64,000 nt of DNA from Alteromonas sp. KUL49 (GCF_006538345.1 NZ_BJKL01000006.1:127095-191094), one strand, 5' to 3'. Positions 5,440-34,777 are shown, counted from the first letter of the stretch. Notes: generated from the sequence alone by a model not told the origin. Made by a program: numbers and translations.

Positions 5440-5625
5440 CACAGAAACCAGCAACTGCTTTGCTAGCAAGCTGCCTAAAGGAGAATCTATGTTTCTATCG
5501 TGTTTTCCCGCACGAGAATACAAATTAGGTGGTTAGGCTGGTATCTGACTTGCCAACGAAACAGTGGCTTACAGTTGCGGGTACAGTTTTGGTTTTTCAC
5601 CAAATTCCCATTTAATTGCCTTTAA
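5440..5625 (-). promoter_or_regulatory. Cobalamin (AdoCbl) riboswitch in the leader of the btuD-btuC-cobTSUC-cobQ operon
   Basis: The minus-strand sequence reads ...GGTGAAAAACCAAAACTGTACCCGCAACTGTAAGCCACTGTTTCGTTGGCAAGTCAGATACCAGCC..., which contains the GGTGAAA..CC element and the B12 box GCCACTG. Boundaries are approximate. Confidence 0.75.
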
Positions 5626-5701
5626 AAACACAAAGACAAACCTGAACGCGGTTCGAGTGTATCAAGAGTGATGTGTACAAACCAGTGGTAATGATTCTTA
5701 A

Positions 5702-9229: not shown

Positions 9230-9868
9230 TTACGCTGCAATCGCTGAGCGTTGCATCCCAACAAAACGAGGGGGCGCTTCTACACGAGCTAGCCATGATC
9301 GAATAGCTGGATAAGACGCCAGACTGACTCCCCCCTCTTCAACGTGAGCAACGTAACTATAGGCAGCCACGTCGGCTACGGTAATTCGCTCATCTACAAG
9401 GAAGTCTCGTTGTGCTAGGTAGGGCTCGAAAATCGCAAAGAAACTATCAGTGCGTTGTTTTGCCGTATCATAATCAAGAGGCATCCCGAACAACTTCACA
9501 AGCCTTACTGCGCAAGGGCCGTTAAATATCTCTCCAGCAGCAACTGACAACCAACGCTGAACTTCAGCGGCGTGTTGGGGGGCAGTAGGTAGCCATTCGT
9601 ATCCATCGGAATAGCGGGTGGCGAGATACACCAAAATCGCATTGGCGTCTGACACGGTTACACCGTTATCTTCAATAACTGGCACTTGTCCAAACGGATT
9701 TTTAGCCAGAAACTCTGGGGCTTTATGGGCACCGTTCATCAGATCTACGTCAACAATCTCATGGGGTAAATCAAGTAAAGACAACATCAACTGTGCCCTG
9801 TGGGCATGACCCGACAGAGGGTGACGGTACAAAACAATCGGCTTTTCAGCGGTAAACTGGGTATTCAT
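9230..9868 (-). CDS. Glutathione S-transferase
   Basis: GST N-terminal thioredoxin-like fold (…LYRHPLSGHAHRAQLML…FGQVPVIEDNG) over 212 aa. Confidence 0.85.
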   Translation of the reverse strand: MNTQFTAEKPIVLYRHPLSGHAHRAQLMLSLLDLPHEIVDVDLMNGAHKAPEFLAKNPFGQVPVIEDNGVTVSDANAILVYLATRYSDGYEWLPTAPQHAAEVQRWLSVAAGEIFNGPCAVRLVKLFGMPLDYDTAKQRTDSFFAIFEPYLAQRDFLVDERITVADVAAYSYVAHVEEGGVSLASYPAIRSWLARVEAPPRFVGMQRSAIAA

Positions 9869-9900
9869 GGTTATCTCCTCTTTGGTTAAGGGGTTAGCGG

Positions 9901-10365
9901 TTAGAAGCCAAGCTCAGTTAGGCTTGCATAATCGTCAGGGCGTCGCCCTTGTGGCCAAAGCATCACTCGCTCACTTTCGGTAATAGTGTGTTCGTTGATG
10001 CTGGCGATACGTCGACGCATCAAACCATTCTCGTCAAATTCCCAGTTTTCGTTACCGTAGGCGCGGAACCACTGGCCAGAATCATCACGAAACTCATAGG
10101 CAAAACGCACGGCAATTCGGTTCTCTGTGAAGGCCCATAGCTCTTTTACCAAGCGATAGTCCAGTTCTCGCGTCCATTTGCGGGTCAAGAACTCACGGAT
10201 CTCTTGTCTACCGGTAATAAACTCGGCGCGGTTTCGCCATTGACTGTCTTCGGTGTATGCCATCGACACTCGCTCTGGGTCACGATGATTCCAAGCATCT
10301 TCTGCAAGTCGAACTTTCTGTGCTGCGGTGTCTTGTGTAAACGGTGGTAGTGGTGGACGTTGCAT
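9901..10365 (-). CDS. DUF1348 / SnoaL-like (NTF2 family) protein
   Basis: 154 aa with a ...[30 protein letters not shown]... pattern typical of DUF1348. Confidence 0.65.
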
Positions 10366-10484
10366 GGTGTAGCTCCTTACTTGTTAGTGATGTAACCACT
10401 ATAGGAACTATCAACTGATAAATAATTAGCCAATTTTGAAATTTATTATTACGATATATGAAATAATAAACGGAGAGCCCGAGC

Positions 10485-11381
10485 GTGGATAAGCTTCATA
10501 CCATGCAGATTTTTATCGAGGTGGCGAAACACCAGAGTTTTTCTGCTGCCGCCGAAGCCCTCAACCTGTCTGCACCTGCAGTAACACGGGCAATAGCCAA
10601 CCTTGAACATGGGCTCGGCGTAAAGCTATTGCACAGAACCACCCGCCACGTCCGATTAACCGATGCTGGCCAAGGCTATCTAGGTGACGCAAAACGGATC
10701 CTTGAAAGCATTGAAGAAGCTGAGGCCGCCGCCACGGGTAGTTACGCTAAACCCAAAGGGACATTAACAATTACTGCGCCTGTACTATTCGGACAAATGC
10801 ACGTGATGCCCATTGTCACCGAATATCTAGAACGTCATACGGGTGTTCAAGTCAGGGCTGTTTTTTTAGATAGAGTCACAAATCTTATGGAAGAGCAATT
10901 CGATGTGGCTATTCGTATAGACCATCTCAAAGACACTAGTCTGTACGCGACCCAAGTGGGACGAGTCGGTCGCATTGCCGTAGGCGCGCCGAGCTATTTT
11001 GAACAGTACGGCTACCCTCAGCATCCTAGTGAGCTCTCGGATCACCGAATTATCGCCACCTCTAGCGACCAAGTAAGTACGTGGAGCTTTAACGACAAAG
11101 GTAAAAAGCTGGCCGTAAAAGTGTCTCCAAGACTGGCTTGTAATCAAAGTGCTGCATCGATAAACGCCGCCATTAGTGGCTATGGGATCGCCAGAACTAT
11201 GTCTTATCAAGTGGGAGAAGCAATCAATGACGGTCGTTTGGTCAGAGTACTCGAAGACTATGAGAATGTGCCGTTTCCAGTAAGTGTGGTTAGGTTAGAG
11301 GGGCGCCAAAGTAGTGCAAAAGTTCGCCATTTTGTCGACTTAGCAATAGAGCGACTGCGGGAAAATTCCTTTATTGGTTAG
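10485..11381 (+). CDS. LysR-family transcriptional regulator
   Basis: N-terminal HTH (…FSAAAEALNLSAPAVTRAIANLE…) plus a LysR substrate-binding domain; it is divergent to the DUF1348 gene. Confidence 0.9.
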   Translation: MDKLHTMQIFIEVAKHQSFSAAAEALNLSAPAVTRAIANLEHGLGVKLLHRTTRHVRLTDAGQGYLGDAKRILESIEEAEAAATGSYAKPKGTLTITAPVLFGQMHVMPIVTEYLERHTGVQVRAVFLDRVTNLMEEQFDVAIRIDHLKDTSLYATQVGRVGRIAVGAPSYFEQYGYPQHPSELSDHRIIATSSDQVSTWSFNDKGKKLAVKVSPRLACNQSAASINAAISGYGIARTMSYQVGEAINDGRLVRVLEDYENVPFPVSVVRLEGRQSSAKVRHFVDLAIERLRENSFIG

Positions 11382-11390
11382 CGCCAAATA

Positions 11391-12362
11391 CTATGCGCTA
11401 TATACTCGTCCGTTCGATTGTCGCCACTGTTTAGGTGACTGTCCGTACAATCGCTTAAACTCACGGCTGAACTGAGAAGAGCTGGTATATCCTACTTCCA
11501 TTGCGGCCACATTAACATTGGTACCCTCAGCTATTCGCATCGCTGCGTTATTCAGTCGCATAGACTTGATAAACTGAATCGGCGACAGATTAGTTGCTTG
11601 TTTAAACTTACGATGAAATACAGCGCGACTCATCCCAATATGACCCGCCATGTCATCGATAGTAATAGCCTCACTCAAATTTGATGACAAAAACTCGATG
11701 GATCGAGCTATCTCATTTCCCACGCCAAACGCACGTCTAGCAGCATACCCAGAATCACCTTTCAAAATGGCATAATACAGCTCTCGTATACGGCCTGCCC
11801 CCAGAATAGCGATATCAGTTGTACTACCTTCAAGGGATACCAAGCGAGTTAAAGCATCAGTAAACTCATCATCCCACCGTGCTGTTGTTAAGCCTTTCGG
11901 ATGGGGTACGCCTTTGGGTAGATTGGTTGAGCCTAATGTACTCTCCAATTCAATGGCGAGCTCTGTCATTACTCGGGTATTTAATGTGATGTATACCCCG
12001 AGCAGCGGGTTAGTTGGCGACGCTTTTGGCGTTCCCGCTTCTATAGGCATAGACATGGTGCAGCAAATATATTTACTGTTGTCGTAAATGTGCTTCTCGC
12101 CATCGACAATGGCTTCTTTGGCGCCACTCACAACTGCGGTAATTGCAGGTTCGTAGACCGCTGGCGCACAACGGATAGACTCGGTAATTTTAAACAATTG
12201 CACCCCGGGTATACCCGTTTCTACCATGCCACCAGCGCTTACTCGCCGTTCTACTAACTCTGCGATTTTTGCTTTGCTCATTATCAATACTTCACTTATC
12301 AACACCGGAGCCACAGTATCAGGCAAATCTAGGTAGTTCAAACGAATGATACAAATAGGCAT
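11391..12362 (-). CDS. AraC-family transcriptional regulator with an AraC_N-type sensor domain
   Basis: The C-terminal HTH_AraC (…IDDMAGHIGMSRAVFHRKFKQATNLSPIQFIKSMRL…) is clear. Confidence 0.85.
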   Translation of the reverse strand: MPICIIRLNYLDLPDTVAPVLISEVLIMSKAKIAELVERRVSAGGMVETGIPGVQLFKITESIRCAPAVYEPAITAVVSGAKEAIVDGEKHIYDNSKYICCTMSMPIEAGTPKASPTNPLLGVYITLNTRVMTELAIELESTLGSTNLPKGVPHPKGLTTARWDDEFTDALTRLVSLEGSTTDIAILGAGRIRELYYAILKGDSGYAARRAFGVGNEIARSIEFLSSNLSEAITIDDMAGHIGMSRAVFHRKFKQATNLSPIQFIKSMRLNNAAMRIAEGTNVNVAAMEVGYTSSSQFSREFKRLYGQSPKQWRQSNGRVYSA

Positions 12363-12446
12363 GTTTTAGCGATTAATTCGCCTATTTATATATCAATATA
12401 GTCACTAAAATGCATTTCAAGATTAAGATTGAGAAGGTAGCGAACC

Positions 12447-13397
12447 ATGACTATTGACAACCAATTCGGTAAAAACGGCTGGACACCTGCAAACATAGAT
12501 TCACAATCAGGCAAGACCTATGTGATTACTGGCGCAAATACTGGTGCAGGGTTTCAGGCGACACGCATACTCCTGTCAAAAGGTGCAAGCGTAGTTATGC
12601 TTAACCGCAATCCAGAAAAATCTCAAACCGCTATTAGTGACCTAAAAAACGAGTTTGGGGAAGACGCAAAGGTACGTTATGTCGTTATGGATCTAGCTGA
12701 CTTGAGTTCGGTGAGAAACGGAGCATCTGAGTTACTTGCTAGTACTCCTCAAATAGACGCACTTATCTGCAACGGCGCTATAGCCCAAATCGCAAAACAA
12801 ACGCTCACCGTGGATGGCTTTGAGAGCCAATTGGGCGTAAATCACTACGGACACTTTTTGTTATGTGGGTTGTTGTTTGACCGCATTGACGCTTCAAAAG
12901 GACGTATTGTGGTTGTATCAAGCGAGGGTCATAAAATAGGGCTCAGAACCATGCAGTTCGACGATATGAATTGGGACAAGAACTACCATCCCAACAAGGT
13001 TTACAGCCAAAGTAAATTAGCGCAAATGATGTTCGCTTATGAACTTCAAAACAAAGTTCGTGAGTCAGGAAAAGACGTAAGTGTGTATGTTTGCCATCCG
13101 GGAGCCTCAAACACCTCACTGATAAGAGACAGTGCGAACTTTGCCACCCGTGCTACTTGGTCGATTATGGTCAAACTCGGACTTGCACAGTCAGCAGAAA
13201 AAGGGGCATACCCTGAAGTCATGTGCGCTACACAAGCAAACCTAAAAGAACGCGCATATTACGGTCCTACGGGATTAATGAACTTTGGTGGCCCTGTGGG
13301 TGAATGCAAGCTTGAGTCTTTTGTACTCGAAGACACGGTTCTAAAGAGACTATGGGAAGTGTCTGAACAAGCAACGTCTCACAGTTGGAACGTATAG
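12447..13397 (+). CDS. SDR-family oxidoreductase
   Basis: TGANTGAGFQ Rossmann motif and a YxxxK region. Confidence 0.85.
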   Translation: MTIDNQFGKNGWTPANIDSQSGKTYVITGANTGAGFQATRILLSKGASVVMLNRNPEKSQTAISDLKNEFGEDAKVRYVVMDLADLSSVRNGASELLASTPQIDALICNGAIAQIAKQTLTVDGFESQLGVNHYGHFLLCGLLFDRIDASKGRIVVVSSEGHKIGLRTMQFDDMNWDKNYHPNKVYSQSKLAQMMFAYELQNKVRESGKDVSVYVCHPGASNTSLIRDSANFATRATWSIMVKLGLAQSAEKGAYPEVMCATQANLKERAYYGPTGLMNFGGPVGECKLESFVLEDTVLKRLWEVSEQATSHSWNV

Positions 13398-27238: not shown

Positions 27239-28043
27239 ATGACCAGATACCGCGACCAGTTTACAGATGTAGTCAATTACATTGATACAAACCTCGACAG
27301 TGAGCTTGATGTTGAAAAGCTTTGTCGGTTGGCATGCCTTTCAAAGTACCATTTTCACAGACAGTTTTCGTCGCACTTTGGTATGCCAGTGATATCACTT
27401 GCAAGATTACTTCGACTTAAACGAGCTTCCTATCAATTAGCCTACAGGCGTGATACAAAAATTGTTGATATTGCAATGTCGAATGGTTTCGCAAGTCATG
27501 AAGCTTTTTCTCGGGCTTTTAAAAATCATTTTAATAAAAGTCCGTTCCAGTTTAGGAAAAACCCTGATTGGACTCCTTGGCACTCAAAATACGAGCCTGT
27601 TATAAAGCTAAGGACTAAGATTATGAATGATAATTATGATTTTGAAGTGAAGCTGATTGAATTCCCTGAAACATTGATCGCAGTTATGGAGCACCGTGGT
27701 GCACCAAACCTTTTAGGAAAGACAATTCAACAATTCATCGAGTGGAGGAAAATCAACCATCTTCCGCCTAAAAAAACGTAAGACCTTTAATTTGGTTTAT
27801 GATGATCCCGCTGTAATAGCCCCAGAAAATTTCAGATTTGACCTATGTTGTTCCGTTAACGACAAAGTAGCTCCAAATGATTTTGGCATCGTCAACAAGA
27901 CAATACCTAAGGGAAGATGTGCGGTTGTAAGGCACATTGGAAGCGATGAATCTATTGGCATGGCGGTAAGATTCCTCTACTCCACATGGCTTATCAATTC
28001 TGATTTTGAGGTGCGAGACTTTCCATTTTTTTTGAAAGAGTAA
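27239..28043 (+). CDS. AraC-family regulator with a C-terminal GyrI-like effector domain; apparent frameshift in an A7 run at 27770-27776
   Basis: HTH_AraC in ORF 27239..27781; the GyrI-like domain (LVYDDPAVIAPENFRFDLC...) is in ORF 27792..28043. Removing one A gives a continuous ...LPPKKRKTFNLVYDDP... Confidence 0.7.
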
Positions 28044-28162
28044 GTTTTTACCCAGACGTACCAGAGAATGAAATGATTACCGATATTTATTTGCCGATTG
28101 ATTAGGCAAAGCAATACACCTGTTAATTCGGCCTCAATTTGCGGAGTTCTTTGATGTGGTTT

Positions 28163-28190
28163 GCCCTCTTTCTAAGAGGGCTTTACTCAT
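28163..28190 (+). terminator. Rho-independent terminator after the AraC/GyrI gene
   Basis: GCCCTCTT-TCT-AAGAGGGC hairpin followed by TTTACTCATAATTTATTG. Confidence 0.5.
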
Positions 28191-28233
28191 AATTTATTGT
28201 TGTTCCCATCATTAAAGAAGGTTTCAATATTTT

Positions 28234-29055
28234 TTACCAAGTTGTATCTATCACAGCCCTGAACAGCGCATTGAGCACTTCAAAACTCACTTCTCTTGCT
28301 TCATTTCCAGCCGAAAAGGTTTCGAGACGTTCTAGTTCCGAATCGATAAATTGATTTATCACTGGAACTGCAGGCCCATACTCCTTTTCCATGATGACTT
28401 TTTTCTTAGCAAGTAAGCCGGAAATTGCATCGTTTAACACTTCATTTTCCGCAACCAGTGTACGCAACACATCAAACTCGATTGGTGCAGGTTCGTCATA
28501 GGTCTCTAACCATTTGATCGCGAGCAAAGGCCTAAGCACATAAAAATACTTCTTTAGCGGCACTGTATCTTTTTTCAAATAGCCACGAAAATTACCTCTC
28601 GCCATATGCAAATAGTGATAAATCCCCCTATGAGATGAAGCAATCGCAGGTAACAGCGCTCTGGATTTTTCTGCAAAGATGCCCTCGTTAACATAAACGA
28701 TAGGAGATTGAAGCCACTCAACAAACGCTGGATTGGACTTCCAGAAAAGTTTTAGTGCTTTTCGAATATCCCACCCATTGATATCGATTTCATCAACAAT
28801 TGGATATTCAATAACGTCTCGTTTGTTTTCAACATCGACAGCTAAATACCAATCACGCTCGTGTACGTAGATGAACCGAACATCATAATCACTATTGGGA
28901 CTTGCAAATCCCCACGCTCTGCTGCCTGACTCTATTGCATAAAGAACTTTGACTCCGTGCTCTTTTTCTGCAGCTTCGATACGACGCATAACCTCTTCTC
29001 GCACATTTGCATCGATGGCGTTTTCAACATTCACTCTAAACGCTTTATCTTCCAC
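28234..29055 (-). CDS. Pol-beta-superfamily nucleotidyltransferase of the type often linked to RNA-repair operons; last gene of the rtc operon
   Basis: GS-x-D-x-D motif (ESGSRAWGFASPNSDYDVRF). Its start overlaps the rtcA stop by 11 nt. Confidence 0.7.
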   Translation of the reverse strand: MEDKAFRVNVENAIDANVREEVMRRIEAAEKEHGVKVLYAIESGSRAWGFASPNSDYDVRFIYVHERDWYLAVDVENKRDVIEYPIVDEIDINGWDIRKALKLFWKSNPAFVEWLQSPIVYVNEGIFAEKSRALLPAIASSHRGIYHYLHMARGNFRGYLKKDTVPLKKYFYVLRPLLAIKWLETYDEPAPIEFDVLRTLVAENEVLNDAISGLLAKKKVIMEKEYGPAVPVINQFIDSELERLETFSAGNEAREVSFEVLNALFRAVIDTTW

Positions 29056-30094
29056 TTTCCTTACTCACTCTTATTCGCCAACGTCCTTCAGCTTCCTCAT
29101 GCACGTGTACACTGATATCTAGAAACTGCTTAATCACATCAATATTCGTTTTGGTGTGCATACTGAGCTCTGTTGTTGTGAACTCTCCTTCCCCGGCTAA
29201 CGCCATAGGAACCAAGAGTTGATCGGCTAAACGTTCTTCAACGGCAGCACCAACCTTTAAAAACTTTTTAACTCGTCCAGCACAGCGCTTGGCGACCCGC
29301 TCCGATGACACACCCACTTCACCGACTTGTTCAAACACACTGGTGAATACATCACCTTTAATTTTTGCTTGAAAGCTATTCCCTGGCCCATTGGTTTTGT
29401 ATCGCTCTACTTCACCCAGAGCTGCATTCCAGTTCAACGCTTTTCTGGCGGCTGTCACTTCTTTTTGACCAATGGTGTCAGGTAGTTCGCTCATTAGCGC
29501 CTTCAAATAACAATGCTTCTGCTCCTGTTCAAACTCCCTCCCTGGGGTCAGCAATGACATAGCTTTTAGTGTATCGGTCGGCTCAATAGTTAACGTCCAC
29601 TTGCCACCTCCAGCGGGGTAAAACCCAAGAGAAGTGGTCTCTACTTCAGTCTTGACTCCCATGGCATTGAGTACTGCCAAATACGACTCTTTGAAAAAGC
29701 AAAGGGAGGGAGACATACCGTTGTGGGTTCCACCTTCAAAGGTGATTGTTGACGAGCCTTTAGCAAGTGCTAACACCGGAAGTATGGTTTGTGCCACTAA
29801 AACCGTACTTCCGGCGGTACCAATCACAAAATGGTAATCTCCCGTTTTCACTACCCCCGGTGAAAACCTGATGCGTTCCGCCCCTAACTCAACGTCTTCG
29901 GCGCTAGCCTCGCTAATGGCTTGAGCCGCCTTGACTGATGTTAGGTGCTGGCGTAAAAGCCCAGGCCTGTCTCTGTTGGCTCTTATGTTTACCAACTCAA
30001 TAGGTGTTTGTGTTAGCACCGACAAAGTGAGTGCCGTCCTTAGCACTTGTCCGCCACCCTCTCCTTGAGAACCATCAATCACTAAAAAAGACAT
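29045..30094 (-). CDS. rtcA: RNA 3'-terminal phosphate cyclase
   Basis: MSFLVIDGSQGEGGGQVLRTALTLS... and a conserved His-containing region; 349 aa. Confidence 0.9.
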   Translation of the reverse strand: MSFLVIDGSQGEGGGQVLRTALTLSVLTQTPIELVNIRANRDRPGLLRQHLTSVKAAQAISEASAEDVELGAERIRFSPGVVKTGDYHFVIGTAGSTVLVAQTILPVLALAKGSSTITFEGGTHNGMSPSLCFFKESYLAVLNAMGVKTEVETTSLGFYPAGGGKWTLTIEPTDTLKAMSLLTPGREFEQEQKHCYLKALMSELPDTIGQKEVTAARKALNWNAALGEVERYKTNGPGNSFQAKIKGDVFTSVFEQVGEVGVSSERVAKRCAGRVKKFLKVGAAVEERLADQLLVPMALAGEGEFTTTELSMHTKTNIDVIKQFLDISVHVHEEAEGRWRIRVSKESGR

Positions 30095-30102
30095 ATTGCC
30101 TC

Positions 30103-31335
30103 CTACCCCTTAACACACACGACTTGTTTCAATGTGTAAACCACTTCCACTAAGTCTTTTTGCGCATCCATTACTTTCTCAATGTCTTTGTACGCATGTG
30201 GAATTTCATCTATCACTGACTCGTCTTTGCGACATTCCACACCCTGTGTTGCTTCAATTTGGTCTTTCACGCTATACACCTTTTTTGCCTTAGTGCGCGA
30301 CATGACTCTTCCCGCACCGTGGCTACAGCTGTTAAAGCTTTCAGGGTTTCCAAGGCCACGCACAATAAAAGAACGGGCGCCCATACTTCCAGGAATGATC
30401 CCTATTTCATCTTTTTCCGCTCTAACGGCTCCCTTTCGGGTAACGAAACAGTCTTTACCAAAGTGCTTCTCTCGCGAGATATAATTGTGGTGACAATTCA
30501 CCGCCAACTCCGCCGTCGAAAATGGAATAGGGATTTCTTTGCGAAGTGCTGAAATGGCGTTAATCATCATGATTTCGCGATTTTTCTTCGCATAGTCTTG
30601 TGCCCATTCCACAGCTTCAACATAGTCATCAAAATAATCATTTCCTTCAGACAAATAGGCCAAATCCATATCTGGCAAATTGATCTGGTGACGTTCCATT
30701 TCCTTTTTAGCCAGCTCAATGAAGTAAGTACCAATGCGGTTACCTACGCCACGACTACCAGAGTGCAACATGATCCAAACTGCATCATTTTCATCTAAGC
30801 AAAGCTCTAAAAAGTGATTTCCCGTTCCCATGGTACCCAAGTGGTTAACGTGATTACTCTTTCGAATTGCGGGATGCTTTTGGCAAATTTTTTCAAATCT
30901 CGCCTCTAACTTTTTCCACTCTCCTGCAACCACGTCAGGAATGTTTTGCCATGCACCTTTGTCCCTGCCTCTTTGCCCTCGTCTTCCACTTGTTCTTCCA
31001 TGGGGAACCGCGGCTTCGAATGCACTCCTTATACCAAACAGGTTGTCTGGCAACTGGCTTGCAGTAAGAGTGGTTTTGGTGGCTACCATGCCGCAACCTA
31101 TATCTACACCCACAGCAGCGGGGATAACCGCATCAACTGAAGGGATGACGCTACCAATGGTTGCCCCCTTGCCCATATGCACGTCTGGCATTACTGCGAT
31201 ATGCGAATGTACCAATGGCATACTGGCAATATTCTTTAACTGCTCTTGCGCTTGCTCTTCAAAAGGCACGCCTTTGGTCCATGCCTTAATGGTTGCCATT
31301 CCATCGTTTTCTATAACGTTGTAATTCTTACACAT
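30103..31335 (-). CDS. rtcB: RNA-splicing ligase RtcB (3'-phosphate/5'-OH ligase)
   Basis: 410 aa with His- and Cys-rich metal-site motifs typical of RtcB (…MPDVHMGKG…, …GIIPGSMGARSF…, …CSHGAGR…). Confidence 0.95.
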   Translation of the reverse strand: MCKNYNVIENDGMATIKAWTKGVPFEEQAQEQLKNIASMPLVHSHIAVMPDVHMGKGATIGSVIPSVDAVIPAAVGVDIGCGMVATKTTLTASQLPDNLFGIRSAFEAAVPHGRTSGRRGQRGRDKGAWQNIPDVVAGEWKKLEARFEKICQKHPAIRKSNHVNHLGTMGTGNHFLELCLDENDAVWIMLHSGSRGVGNRIGTYFIELAKKEMERHQINLPDMDLAYLSEGNDYFDDYVEAVEWAQDYAKKNREIMMINAISALRKEIPIPFSTAELAVNCHHNYISREKHFGKDCFVTRKGAVRAEKDEIGIIPGSMGARSFIVRGLGNPESFNSCSHGAGRVMSRTKAKKVYSVKDQIEATQGVECRKDESVIDEIPHAYKDIEKVMDAQKDLVEVVYTLKQVVCVKG

Positions 31336-31423
31336 AACGTTTTCCTATATTCTTTCCTTTCAGCAGGGCCACCAATACACAACATGGCAGCCCCGCAGTT
31401 ACTCTTTGCTTTGCGAACCAACG

Positions 31424-32578
31424 CTAAGCGATTTTAACCAAGCTGTTAGTTAAGCCTTCTAAACCACCGTATACCGTTAAGCTATCAATGCGGTCAGCGA
31501 TTTTTTCAAGCGCCTCAAGTTCCTTTAAACGCATTAAGGTTGGGTTGTTTTCCATTACCTTTGCGGTGTTGTGCAAACTTCTTGTGGCAGAGGTTTCTTC
31601 TCTGCGTTTAATCACATTAGCTTCGGCCGCTTTTTGCGCCTCAACCACCTGATTCAATATGGCTTTCATTTCACCAGGTAAGATGATGTCTTTGACACCC
31701 ACATTAAGTAAGGACACACCGATAGCTTTTAGCTGTTGTACGACTAGCTCTTTAACTGTCTCATTGACGTACAACTTATCTAAAAGAATGTCGTCAAGGG
31801 TCTTGGTACCCACGGCCTCTCTTAGCGCCAACTGTAAGATCTTGTAGGCATAATCATCGACTTTATCCACACTTTGAGCGACTAGCTCAGTATCATCAAT
31901 CTTTATGCTCGCACTTAAGTTAATCCGTAAGCTCACGCGGTCCTTACTCAGAATCTCTTGACCTGAGACTTCCAACATCTTTGCCCGGCAATCAAAAGTT
32001 TTGAGTTCAACATCATGATTGAACTGCCAATAAGCGTGCCTACCCGGTGAAAGTCTCTTGATAAACTTACCGTCTACATACAAAAGACCCTCTTGATCTT
32101 TTGTCACCATAAGGTCGGCTATTGGCTTAGCAGCGACGGTGCGCTCGCTCCTAATCAATCTTGAAGCGCTATTTGCACCTGCTCGATTGATCAGAAACAT
32201 GAGTTGCTCATCAACTTCTAGATCTTCATCAACAACCAAGGTATCCAATCGGATATCACCGGCATCCTTCCAGAGGTATACATGTTCACTTGGCGCAACA
32301 ATGCCTCTCAGTAAGTCGTTAACATAAAGCAAACCCACTTGGTTGCTTTCTAGTTTCCAGTGAGAAACGTGTGCTTTAAGCACCTCACTATTGCGATACA
32401 AACGCTCGGCATTTCGCTCACTAAAATAGAGCTCATTAATATCGAACGTCACAAAATCATATTCTTTTTTGATATCCCAAATTTTATGCTTTCCTGGCAT
32501 AAGAACGTCAGTCAGCACTTGATTTTTAAACACTAAAACTCTCTGATTTTCGGTGACTAATTTGGTTACACTAAACAT
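31424..32578 (-). CDS. SPFH/band-7 (slipin-like) domain protein without a TM segment; first gene of the rtc operon
   Basis: The C-terminal half shows the SPFH pattern and a coiled-coil tail (…AQKAAEANVIKRREETSA…). The RBS AAGGAAAT precedes the ATG. Confidence 0.75.
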   Translation of the reverse strand: MFSVTKLVTENQRVLVFKNQVLTDVLMPGKHKIWDIKKEYDFVTFDINELYFSERNAERLYRNSEVLKAHVSHWKLESNQVGLLYVNDLLRGIVAPSEHVYLWKDAGDIRLDTLVVDEDLEVDEQLMFLINRAGANSASRLIRSERTVAAKPIADLMVTKDQEGLLYVDGKFIKRLSPGRHAYWQFNHDVELKTFDCRAKMLEVSGQEILSKDRVSLRINLSASIKIDDTELVAQSVDKVDDYAYKILQLALREAVGTKTLDDILLDKLYVNETVKELVVQQLKAIGVSLLNVGVKDIILPGEMKAILNQVVEAQKAAEANVIKRREETSATRSLHNTAKVMENNPTLMRLKELEALEKIADRIDSLTVYGGLEGLTNSLVKIA

Positions 32579-32754
32579 TTTCTATTTCCTTTTTGTTCAG
32601 CTTTAAACGGTGTTAGTAAGGGTTAATTACTTGGCAAACAAAGGTGTGAAGCTTTGTAATAACAGGGAGCCTCCTGCTTGCTGTTAATCATCAACCTCTT
32701 ACGTGTGCTAGCCAGTGGTAATAACAACTTACTAACTGTGTATCTAACATTGTG

Positions 32755-32828
32755 TTTTTTGGGTGGGACTCGAACCCACAACATCCGAATTAATTGTTCG
32801 GAGCTCTACCTGTTTGAGCTACCTAGAA
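32755..32828 (-). ncRNA. tRNA-like element 1; it has no encoded CCA and a degenerate acceptor stem
   Basis: Minus strand: TA GCTC-AAACAGGTA-GAGC T CCGAA-CAATTAA-TTCGG ATGTT GTGGG-TTCGAGT-CCCAC CCAAAAAA. D- and T-arms are perfect, but the anticodon loop lacks U33. Its 5' end abuts element 2. Confidence 0.5.
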
Positions 32829-32899
32829 TTTAAGGAAGGATTCGAACCTTCGCCGACGGCATTTTTAAGCCGTTGCTCTATCCTCTGAGCTACTTAAAT
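32827..32899 (-). ncRNA. tRNA-like element 2; full cloverleaf with an 8-nt anticodon loop and no encoded CCA
   Basis: Minus strand: ATTTAAG TA GCTC-AGAGGATA-GAGC A ACGGC-TTAAAAAT-GCCGT CGGC GAAGG-TTCGAAT-CCTTC CTTAAAT T. The acceptor, D and T stems all pair perfectly. Confidence 0.55.
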
Positions 32900-32929
32900 A
32901 GTTGTTTGATTAGGCATACGCAGTGACCA

Positions 32930-32943
32930 CTTGCTCAAGCAAG
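32930..32943. promoter_or_regulatory. Perfect palindrome CTTGCT-CA-AGCAAG, upstream of the tRNA-like elements in the rtcR / rtc-operon intergenic region
   Basis: Seen directly in the sequence. This is a candidate enhancer or operator site and is speculative. Confidence 0.3.
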
Positions 32944-33169
32944 GTCAGAGCGCACCGGAGTGATGTGTGAATCACAACCTCATAATCAGACACTCTATAC
33001 ATATCAAGTCGTGTACCAAACTCTTAAAAGTAGAAATAAAAATTAATAAATAATTGATTAATAAAAATTTATTAAGGATTTATGCTGGTATCCGTTAATC
33101 TCTTATAGATTTTCAAAACAGAAAAAAGTAATCTTAAAGATATAAATATATCTACTTGGATACACTATA

Positions 33170-34777
33170 TTGAACAAAAAAACAGTAGCGGTGAGTTTAA
33201 TCGGCTCACAACTGGATTTTGTGGGGAAGCGCGTCGACCGATGGGCGAGATGGCGTCCAAACGTAAGTTTGTGTAGCCAAGACAACTTAGTGATTGACCA
33301 GCTCCACATGCTGCATGACAACCATTCGGAACGTTTAGCGAATAACGTCGCTGTCGATATTGAGAGTGTATCCCCTGAAACAAGCGTGAGTTTGCACAAC
33401 GTTAACTTCAATGATCCATGGGACTTTGAAGAAGTGTATTCCAAGCTCTACGACTGGTGTCATCGCCAAACCTTTGATACTGATACAAACGACTACCTGT
33501 TTCATATCACAACGGGTACCCACGTTGTGCAAATTTGCAGTTACCTGCTTACCGAGAGCCGTCATTTTCCGGGACGACTTATTCAGACCTCTCCCGATAA
33601 ATACAACAAAAATCGATCGATTGGGCGTACACAGATCATCGACCTCGACTTGTCTAAGTATGACCAGTTGGCGACTCGATTCGACCGCGAGCATTTAGAG
33701 GGTAAAGCGTTTCTAAAAGGTGGTATCCAAACCAAAAACGGCGATTTTAACCGGCTGATTAGTCAGATTGAGAAAGTTGCTATTCGTTCTAGCGATCCAA
33801 TGCTACTCACTGGCCCCACTGGGGCAGGTAAAAGCCAATTAGCCACCCGTATTTTTCAACTCAAAAAACGCCGCTCTATGCTGAAGGGGGATTTGGTCTC
33901 GGTAAATTGCGCAACCCTAAAAGGCGAAAACGCGATGGCCGCGCTATTCGGCCATACACGGGGAGCATTCACAGGCGCTCAGAAGGAAAGAAGCGGATAC
34001 CTACTTACCGCCAATAAAGGGGTATTATTTTTAGATGAAATTGGTGAACTTGGCCTTGAAGAGCAGGCTATGTTACTCCATGCCATCGAGAACAAGTCTT
34101 TCCATCCCGTTGGGAGTGATCGCACTGTAGAAAGTGACTTCCAACTTATCGCCGGTACTAACAAAGACCTCAAAGATGAAGTTCACAAAGGAAGGTTCAG
34201 AGAAGACTTACTCGCGAGGATAAATCTGTGGACGTATAAATTACCTGCGCTCAAAGAACGAAAGGAAGATATTCCTGCAAATATTGATTACGAGATTGAG
34301 GTTTACGCACAAAAGAACAGCCAGCGCGTGCAATTTAATAAAGAGGCGAAGCTAGCTTTTGAAAAGTTTGCGGTATCACCAGAGGCGGTTTGGTCTGGTA
34401 ACTTTCGCGATCTAAGCTCAGCCGTTACTAGACTTTGCACACTGGCAGACTCTTCTCGTATATCTGTTGATGATGTTGAAGAAGAAATCGAGCGATTACG
34501 TGCTTCCTGGCAAACTTCAAGCGAAGCTCTTACCGTAAATCACCTCAACAGGTATTTAACTGAGGAGCAGATAGCAAACCTAGACGACTTCGATATTCAT
34601 CAACTCAGTTACGTTGTATCTGTGTGTCAACGTCACAATAGTATGGCGTCTGCTGGACGAGAGCTTTTTAACGTGAGTCGCACTAAAAAAGCACAAACCA
34701 ATGATTCAACGCGTCTACAAAAATACCTCAGCAAGTTTGGTTTGAAATGGGCACAGCTAACAAAAAGCCCGCAGTAA
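33170..34777 (+). CDS. rtcR: Sigma-54-dependent transcriptional activator RtcR (CARF-like N-terminal domain + AAA+ + HTH); TTG start
   Basis: It aligns end to end with E. coli RtcR as I recall that sequence: KTVA..G..LD, HITTGTH, GAFTGA sigma-54 contact motif and Walker A GPTGAGKS. Confidence 0.9.
   Translation: MNKKTVAVSLIGSQLDFVGKRVDRWARWRPNVSLCSQDNLVIDQLHMLHDNHSERLANNVAVDIESVSPETSVSLHNVNFNDPWDFEEVYSKLYDWCHRQTFDTDTNDYLFHITTGTHVVQICSYLLTESRHFPGRLIQTSPDKYNKNRSIGRTQIIDLDLSKYDQLATRFDREHLEGKAFLKGGIQTKNGDFNRLISQIEKVAIRSSDPMLLTGPTGAGKSQLATRIFQLKKRRSMLKGDLVSVNCATLKGENAMAALFGHTRGAFTGAQKERSGYLLTANKGVLFLDEIGELGLEEQAMLLHAIENKSFHPVGSDRTVESDFQLIAGTNKDLKDEVHKGRFREDLLARINLWTYKLPALKERKEDIPANIDYEIEVYAQKNSQRVQFNKEAKLAFEKFAVSPEAVWSGNFRDLSSAVTRLCTLADSSRISVDDVEEEIERLRASWQTSSEALTVNHLNRYLTEEQIANLDDFDIHQLSYVVSVCQRHNSMASAGRELFNVSRTKKAQTNDSTRLQKYLSKFGLKWAQLTKSPQ

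Follow-up and report, generated by a model that had tools for sequence, protein, structure and literature searches.

What do an SPFH/Band-7 protein and tRNA-like RNA do in an operon for RNA repair? The question has stood since 2016, when such operons, which also encode the RNA ligase RtcB, were predicted. It is raised again by a locus of Alteromonas sp. KUL49, positions 28,234-34,777 of the 64,000-nucleotide (nt) stretch of NZ_BJKL01000006.1 that was analyzed, here called the window. The locus is read as a complete RtcB repair operon of the Band-7/b7a-tRNA class (b7a-tRNA, band 7-associated tRNA) under the activator RtcR and sigma-54. This reading, together with the events proposed below, is given a probability of about 0.8. 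It is carried by gene identities, linkage, co-conservation in other genomes, and RNA structures with covariation. The window has a Band-7 gene adjacent to RtcB and a tRNA-like noncoding RNA (ncRNA) beside the Band-7 gene, two marks of the class. The initial annotation, made by a model from the sequence, had called the composition unrecognized. That claim was dropped because the gene set is that of a known, bioinformatically predicted class: the prediction dates from 2016 (cited here second-hand), the rtc locus of Pseudomonas aeruginosa is known, and the nucleotidyltransferase RlaP was characterized in 2025. Two points go beyond that annotation. The tRNA-like elements are part of a longer conserved RNA with a leader and a rod, and no membrane helix is predicted in the SPFH protein.

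The minus-strand operon runs in the order SPFH gene, rtcB, rtcA, rlaP, with rtcR divergent on the plus strand (Table 1). The coordinates first annotated were correct, as were the 11-nt rlaP/rtcA overlap (29045-29055) and the 8-nt gap between rtcA and rtcB (30095-30102). The assignment of rtcR as a divergent sigma-54-type activator gene with a CARF-like N-terminal domain was upheld by Pfam (RtcR, 3e-79; Sigma54_activat, 1e-47) and by the NCBIfam equivalog RNA_repair_RtcR, which scored 777 bits against a cutoff of 650. GAFTGA and Walker A motifs are present in the RtcR translation. RtcA passes its NCBIfam equivalog cutoff (378.6 bits vs 352). RtcB lies under the cutoff of the E. coli-type equivalog (175 vs 407) and carries DIGCG, GNHF, HSGSRG, NCHHNY, and SHGAGR, known as the catalytic motifs of E. 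coli RtcB. RlaP matches PF10127 at 293 bits over 248 of 249 profile positions, its translation shows the Pol-beta motif GS...DxD, and its gene sits beside an RNA ligase gene. In profile searches, the nucleotidyltransferase and the SPFH protein both fell into the expected families. A PDB sequence search with RlaP gave no match, and PADLOC gave none for SPFH, RlaP, or RtcB. No further open reading frame (ORF) was found at the locus besides the five genes. The flanking genes encode an AraC/GyrI-type regulator (convergent with rlaP) and the single-stranded DNA-binding protein SSB, so the locus has neither a Ro nor an archease gene, as first annotated. No TROVE (Ro60) domain was matched in any locus protein or neighbor.

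Table 1. Positions of the genes, RNA elements, and regulatory sites of the repair locus in the window. A2 is an alignment of the rtcR-SPFH intergenic regions from eight orthologous sequences.
Feature	Position	Strand	Remarks
rlaP, Pol-beta-type nucleotidyltransferase (PF10127)	28234-29055	-	273 aa, GTG start; Pfam RlaP 2e-87
rtcA, RNA 3'-terminal phosphate cyclase	29045-30094	-	349 aa; Pfam RTC 6e-74
rtcB, 3'-phosphate/5'-OH RNA ligase	30103-31335	-	410 aa; Pfam RtcB 1e-126
SPFH/Band-7 (slipin) gene	31424-32578	-	384 aa; Pfam Band_7 1.4e-27
3' rod, 125-nt imperfect hairpin	32612-32736 (whole element 32610-32738)	-	Conserved apical motif GCAAGCNGGANGCUCCC
tRNA mimic 2	32754-32828	-	ARAGORN only, no Rfam tRNA match reported; overlaps mimic 1 by 2 nt
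tRNA mimic 1	32827-32899	-	ARAGORN; Rfam tRNA 59.4 bits, E 2.5e-10
5' leader, three-way junction	32900-32993	-	~90 nt; closing stem P1, hairpin P2, bulged stem P3
Putative sigma-54-type promoter, TGGTAC-N5-TTGA	33004-33018	-	Position conserved in A2
Candidate RtcR binding site (upstream activating sequence), TATCC-N5-GATA then ATATC	33139-33163		Invariant block in A2, columns 47-75
rtcR	33170-34777	+	TTG start; sigma-54 enhancer-binding activator, N-terminal RtcR (divergent CARF) domain
GC-rich hairpin, possible operon-end terminator	28163-28181		Between rlaP end and convergent AraC/GyrI-like gene; read from sequence

A genome scan with an alignment of the SPFH protein gave 556 relatives, and the best 80 were kept as loci L001-L080. 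Partners were counted by tBLASTn with the window proteins within 6 kb of each SPFH homolog. The 31 closest loci (L001-L031) are those with SPFH identity of 49% or more. RtcB was found at 57 of the 80 loci (29 of the closest 31), RtcR at 46 (29), RtcA at 35 (22), and RlaP at 28 (24). The loci span Gamma- and Betaproteobacteria and metagenome-assembled genomes (MAGs) labeled Myxococcota, Eisenbacteria, and Binatia. The arrangement recurs in dozens of genomes, far beyond chance, and the neighborhood comparison proposed with the initial annotation found the genes co-conserved. Gene order is variable; examples are SPFH-RlaP-RtcB and RtcR facing RtcB-RtcA-RNA-SPFH.

Candidate regulatory sites were located in the rtcR-SPFH intergenic region. 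The candidate RtcR site adjoins rtcR, ~120-150 nt upstream of the sigma-54 site, and its invariance suggests an upstream activating role. The sequence TGGCAC-N5-TTG is found upstream of the RNAs in 31/31 of the closest loci. A scan of 27700-33300 (5.6 kb) for sigma-70-like promoters found none, vs 9.8 ± 3.4 expected from shuffles, and this depletion is consistent with one sigma-54-driven unit. Co-transcription, inducibility, and dependence on RtcR are proposed for KUL49 as likely properties. Of the single damage-inducible healing-and-sealing module that had been annotated, the link to RtcR and sigma-54 and the co-conservation stand; induction by damage itself is presumed.

The proposed sequence of events is as follows. 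RNA damage would produce tRNA fragments that activate RtcR, as is known for Salmonella RtcR. RtcR bound upstream would then drive the sigma-54 promoter, and the transcript would open with ~430 nt of structured ncRNA, followed by SPFH, rtcB, rtcA, and rlaP. RtcB would join 3'-phosphate or 2',3'-cyclic-phosphate ends to 5'-OH ends, RtcA would cyclize 3'-phosphates, and RlaP would restore one or two nucleotides on trimmed 3' ends. The SPFH protein would probably assemble into a ring or cage in the cytosol and bind the RNA of leader and tRNA mimics. By analogy with the proposal for Salmonella Ro60/Y RNA, the resulting ribonucleoprotein (RNP) may scaffold the repair enzymes or assist them as a cofactor.

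The ~430 nt before the SPFH gene are one composite structured RNA, made of leader, tRNA mimics, and rod. Folding of the whole 406-nt RNA region is more stable than that of shuffles (z-score -3.4). The leader stems P1, P2, and P3 (P3 strands GGUGCGC / GCGUAUGCC) were set by hand and then tested by pair counts; RNAalifold on a MAFFT alignment of the leader recovered the central stem only. In a 31-sequence alignment, 77.8% of leader pairs are paired, vs 66.6% in shuffles and 34-51% with the partners slid. A covariance model of the leader (R2) scores 67.2 bits in the window. It gives a single on-position match per locus in 66 other loci, ~36 of them outside the training set, and reaches betaproteobacterial loci with SPFH identity of only ~41%. 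The alignment of R2 hits has 83% of cells paired vs 62.5% in shuffles, and 0/500 shuffles scored as high; covarying pairs include UA:47/CG:21 and GC:40/AU:19/CG:5. Because the hit alignment is fitted to the model, the 31-sequence test is the more independent of the two. The leader always lies just 5' of a mimic, with a gap of -3 to 20 nt in 41/52 loci. No Rfam family matched the leader, even at E up to 10. A long-range, Y-RNA-like closure of 5' and 3' ends was also considered, and the minimum free energy fold of the single sequence does pair the 5' end with nucleotides that follow mimic 2. This closure was not adopted: on inspection the A2 orthologs do not visibly keep the pairing, and leader stem P1 covaries.

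Two tRNA-like elements had been annotated, and both were recovered: ARAGORN called each of them, the Rfam tRNA model matched the upstream one, and the downstream one is conserved in orthologous loci. Mimic 1 has a perfect 7-bp acceptor stem and consensus D and T arms, and its anticodon loop has 8 nt (UUAAAAAU). Mimic 2 has 5/7 acceptor pairs, A at position 33 (loop CAAUUAA), and D and T arms conserved in 8/8 A2 sequences. Neither element encodes CCA. The elements do not show the set of features expected of decoding tRNAs, namely a 7-nt loop, U33, purine 37, intact acceptor, and separable boundaries. They are considered mimics and not decoders because of the 8-nt loop in one, A33 and two acceptor mismatches in the other, the 2-nt overlap, and the lack of CCA. 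In the 80 loci, elements were counted that precede the SPFH gene and share its strand. ARAGORN called an element within 700 nt in 59 loci, 6 further loci pass the Rfam tRNA threshold, 13 further have at least a consensus T-arm, and one further has an element ~1 kb upstream. A tRNA-like element or T-arm is thus found upstream of SPFH in 79/80; the remaining locus has no upstream sequence. The Rfam YrlA family was tried for the window RNA and rejected (33.2 bits vs a gathering threshold of 69); the matched segment straddles the boundary between mimics 1 and 2.

The anticodon arm bears on a different account of these RNAs, in which the mimics are decoys or sensors. They would bait anticodon nucleases and other tRNA-cleaving toxins and soak up or competitively inhibit the nuclease; in a variant, cyclic-phosphate fragments released from cleaved mimics would act back on RtcR, and SPFH would only store or protect the RNA. 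The arm is the sole fast-evolving part of a nearly invariant RNA: among eight orthologs of mimic 1, identity is 88.6% in the body, 48.9% in the anticodon stem, and 34.6% in the loop. The stem is preserved by compensatory changes and the loop has 6, 7, or 8 nt. The canonical 7-nt Y32-U33-R37 loop occurs in only 26/69 SPFH-proximal elements, vs 64/83 tRNAs further upstream. Such a pattern would suit a bait, but the variability of the loop could equally reflect absence of constraint, and nucleases may cleave loops poorly when these have 6 or 8 nt or no U33. A decoy would also leave the strictly conserved leader and the SPFH protein without a role. We consider this account rather doubtful, and the repair operon with an SPFH-RNA scaffold is preferred.

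The rod is the part of the RNA closest to the SPFH gene. RNAalifold gave it 34 pairs, 29 with compensatory changes, and a rod model (R1) scores 121 bits in the window and matches 30 of L001-L031. The apical motif GCAAGCNGGANGCUCCC was found in 27 loci, all among these 31. No R1 match was found in the rest of the 80 loci, so the rod is either clade-specific or too diverged to detect. At the apex (32660-32680, minus strand), a short hairpin loop (AGC-NGGAN-GCU) presents an invariant GGA, and the Shine-Dalgarno sequence of the SPFH gene contains another; the arrangement resembles CsrA/Rsm binding sites.

These features would also fit an RNA that acts only in cis, as a 5' untranslated region with RNase P/Z/III sites or with control over translation or stability of the SPFH-rtcB mRNA; there would be no trans-acting RNP, and SPFH would act separately. 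The elements do lie in the 5' untranslated region, with the Shine-Dalgarno sequence of the SPFH gene directly after them. As a long, imperfectly paired duplex the rod could be an RNase III-type substrate, its GGA loop resembles a CsrA/Rsm site, and it is confined to a clade with SPFH first after the promoter. Elsewhere, however, the leader/mimic unit is found mid-operon (RtcB-RtcA-RNA-SPFH) or by a stand-alone SPFH gene, always adjoining SPFH. Since the RNA travels with the SPFH gene and not with the promoter, it seems to be a partner of the protein, and a purely cis role is less likely; the Ro/Y RNA precedent also favors a trans-acting RNA. Overall the cis account is judged improbable.

The SPFH protein is identical (100%) to the NCBI "slipin family protein" of Alteromonas sp. 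KUL49. It has three beta repeats at the N-terminus, then an SPFH domain resembling that of stomatin, then a long helix. A sequence search of PDB aligned residues 160-370 with stomatin, QmcA, and HflK. The AlphaFold2 model has a predicted local distance difference test (pLDDT) score of 75.6, and Foldseek searches with it returned subunits of stomatin, HflK/C, prohibitin, flotillin, and erlin cages. No transmembrane helix was predicted in the protein (maximum 19-residue Kyte-Doolittle mean 1.32, inside the SPFH domain). No N-terminal transmembrane or hairpin anchor was predicted either; the N-terminus is modeled as beta strands with pLDDT 80-90. The protein is probably cytosolic because it has no predicted membrane helix, and a ring or cage in the cytosol may reasonably be supposed. 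Residues 1-150 consist of two additional copies of the beta module with which the SPFH domain opens (pairwise E 6e-7 to 2e-3), and this N-terminal module was found in only 160 cluster representatives among 1.84 billion. Phage genomes yielded no SPFH homolog. SPFH homologs of the Pseudoalteromonas luteoviolacea group (L016, L017, L019, L020, L022-L024, L028) reach ~540 aa, as their N-terminal beta-repeat region has undergone one more tandem duplication, and the mimics upstream of them are more degenerate and are missed by ARAGORN.

A chance association, of ordinary or decaying tRNA genes or integration-site remnants with an unrelated membrane-scaffold gene near rtcBA, would account for the anticodons assigned by ARAGORN, for the Rfam tRNA score of mimic 1, and for the canonical-looking tRNA arrays near some distant loci, but it is excluded for practical purposes by the conservation data (position kept in 79/80 loci of distant lineages), and the non-decoding features of the elements, the lack of a predicted transmembrane segment in SPFH, and the small family of its N-terminal module also stand against it.

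The preferred reading of a repair operon with an SPFH-RNA scaffold can be taken further, tentatively. The partner of SPFH may be not a tRNA-like gene but a composite ncRNA, whose invariant feature is an uncataloged three-way-junction leader joined directly to one to three mimics with hypervariable anticodon arms; the KUL49 clade adds the rod with its invariant GGA apical loop. With a stomatin-like cage protein that has no predicted membrane helix, this RNA might build an RNP in the cytosol, comparable in bacteria to Ro-Y RNA or even to the vault, which captures broken tRNAs for RtcB/RlaP or decoys anticodon nucleases. We regard this extension as possible, with the odds against it. If it is true, the leader motif and the modular architecture are new to the literature. 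A particle of RNA and SPFH would be a second bacterial RNP of scaffold plus tRNA mimic, beside Ro/Y RNA, and the first SPFH assembly tied to RNA instead of membranes. To the question of 2016 the present analysis contributes the boundaries of the RNA, a covarying leader absent from Rfam, fast-evolving anticodon arms, and a probably cytosolic SPFH protein. The related gene set of P. aeruginosa and the slipin-RlaP pairs found in some strains of E. coli and Citrobacter bring experiments within practical reach.

Several points weigh against the repair-operon reading. Sigma-54 motif matches in the window number 70, vs 70.8 expected, so that a match alone is at chance level, and the site of the window (TGGTAC...TTGA) departs from consensus; the site was therefore judged by its positional conservation. 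RNA binding and oligomerization of SPFH are presumed; the AlphaFold2 model comprises a single subunit, with low confidence over the 55 C-terminal residues. RlaP yields 3'-OH ends, which RtcB cannot use directly, a difficulty raised by those who characterized RlaP (PMC12776372). Deletion of PaFlo8, the SPFH protein of P. aeruginosa PA14, left growth, virulence-factor, motility, biofilm, and oxidative-stress assays all unchanged. Finally, 23/80 SPFH loci have no RtcB within 6 kb, and those inspected have the SPFH gene and upstream RNA alone among unrelated genes. Because the pair persists there, RNA plus SPFH is taken as the core unit.

The nearest known systems are the RtcB operons of the Band-7/b7a-tRNA class. 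Burroughs and Aravind (2016), as cited in bioRxiv 10.1101/312249 (2018), described a predicted "band 7-associated tRNA" and a Band-7 protein as neighbors of RtcB. The 2018 preprint states that the b7a-tRNA was not yet validated experimentally and appears interchangeable with YrlA, and the system is proposed as a functional equivalent of Ro/Y RNA. Gene content is identical to that found here, with RtcB, a Band-7 gene, a tRNA-like ncRNA, and RlaP beside the ligase. The class has one mimic, whereas two are fused in KUL49, and the leader and rod go unmentioned in the second-hand descriptions of b7a-tRNA systems. PF10127 is named RlaP, for "RNA ligase-associating Pol-beta" (PMC12776372). According to that 2025 preprint, Pseudomonas RlaP, under RtcR, adds one or two nucleoside monophosphates to RNA 3'-OH ends in vitro, favors damaged RNA, and restores aminoacylation of over-trimmed tRNA.

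In P. aeruginosa PAO1 a divergent rtcR regulates an operon encoding RtcB, RtcA, PA4582, and PA4584, and in PA14 the rtc locus includes the gene for the SPFH protein PaFlo8 (PA14_60630). PA4582 is probably the SPFH protein and PA4584 probably RlaP, though no single source says so. The P. aeruginosa locus shares divergent RtcR, SPFH, RlaP, RtcB, and RtcA with KUL49 and differs in gene order, which is rtcB-rlaP-rtcA in P. aeruginosa and P. fluorescens vs rtcB-rtcA-rlaP here. The rtc operon of Salmonella is activated by damaged tRNAs via RtcR. Its rsr-yrlBA-rtcBA arrangement is under the RtcR/sigma-54 control proposed here and resembles the present one in RtcB, RtcA, a scaffold protein, and an ncRNA from within the operon that has a tRNA-like domain. 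The Salmonella scaffold is a TROVE/Ro protein, whereas here it is SPFH and the RNAs lie upstream of the scaffold gene. The rtcR/rtcBA system of E. coli has the same regulator, ligase, and cyclase and the promoter type predicted here, but its operon lacks the SPFH protein, RlaP, and an operon-encoded ncRNA. Stomatin, HflK-HflC, prohibitin, and flotillin cages share the SPFH domain followed by a long, coiled-coil helix. Unlike stomatin-type cages, the KUL49 protein has no predicted membrane anchor, no adjacent NfeD gene, and two extra N-terminal beta modules.

Variant loci were recorded. In Colwellia (L002), a CCA-adding-enzyme-like gene (PolyA_pol head, RNA-binding, and HD domains; 9593-10861) lies between rtcA and rlaP, and a SpoU-type methylase gene lies downstream (12274-12864); the window operon has neither. 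A ~1.3-kb gap between rtcA and rlaP is also seen in several Pseudoalteromonas and related loci (L003, L005, L008-L010, L014). In Citrobacter freundii NZ_CP151862.1 (L081, 3897-7850), rtcR faces slipin-RlaP with no RtcB or RtcA nearby. In E. coli STEC639 CP061233.1 (L082, 4983-6907) a slipin-RlaP pair is flanked by rluF/DUF3811 and lysC; it has a conserved TGGCAC sigma-54-like site, and the PLSDB gene tables, which are incomplete, list no rtcR alongside. The upstream RNA of these enterobacterial slipin-RlaP loci is reduced to a diverged leader plus T-arm. An EF-G-like GTPase gene lies within a few kb of SPFH in two RtcB-less loci (L040, 10899-12986, minus strand; L065, 7903-10065, plus strand). 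The L065 ORF has the full EF-G Pfam domain set and the L040 ORF was judged from its N-terminal sequence only; both neighbors may be coincidence.

Several betaproteobacterial and other MAG loci have arrays of 6-14 mostly canonical-looking tRNA genes upstream of the leader/mimic/SPFH unit, often beside RtcB. They include L051 (1840-3764), L077 (3907-5338), L071 (2607-4653), and L070 (4405-5391), as well as L065, L066, L033, and L061. The leader always comes after the array, directly before the SPFH-proximal mimic. The arrays may point to a link between spare tRNAs and RNA repair.

At the operon end, the hairpin beyond rlaP has a T-run on the plus-strand side only and was not listed by the terminator scan. 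The convergent neighbor consists of an AraC-type helix-turn-helix ORF (27239-27781, plus strand) and, 10 nt later, a GyrI-like effector-domain ORF (27792-28043, plus strand); the pair looks like a single AraC/GyrI regulator gene split by a stop or frameshift. Elsewhere in the window, a cobalamin riboswitch was found at 5519-5660 on the minus strand (72.7 bits).

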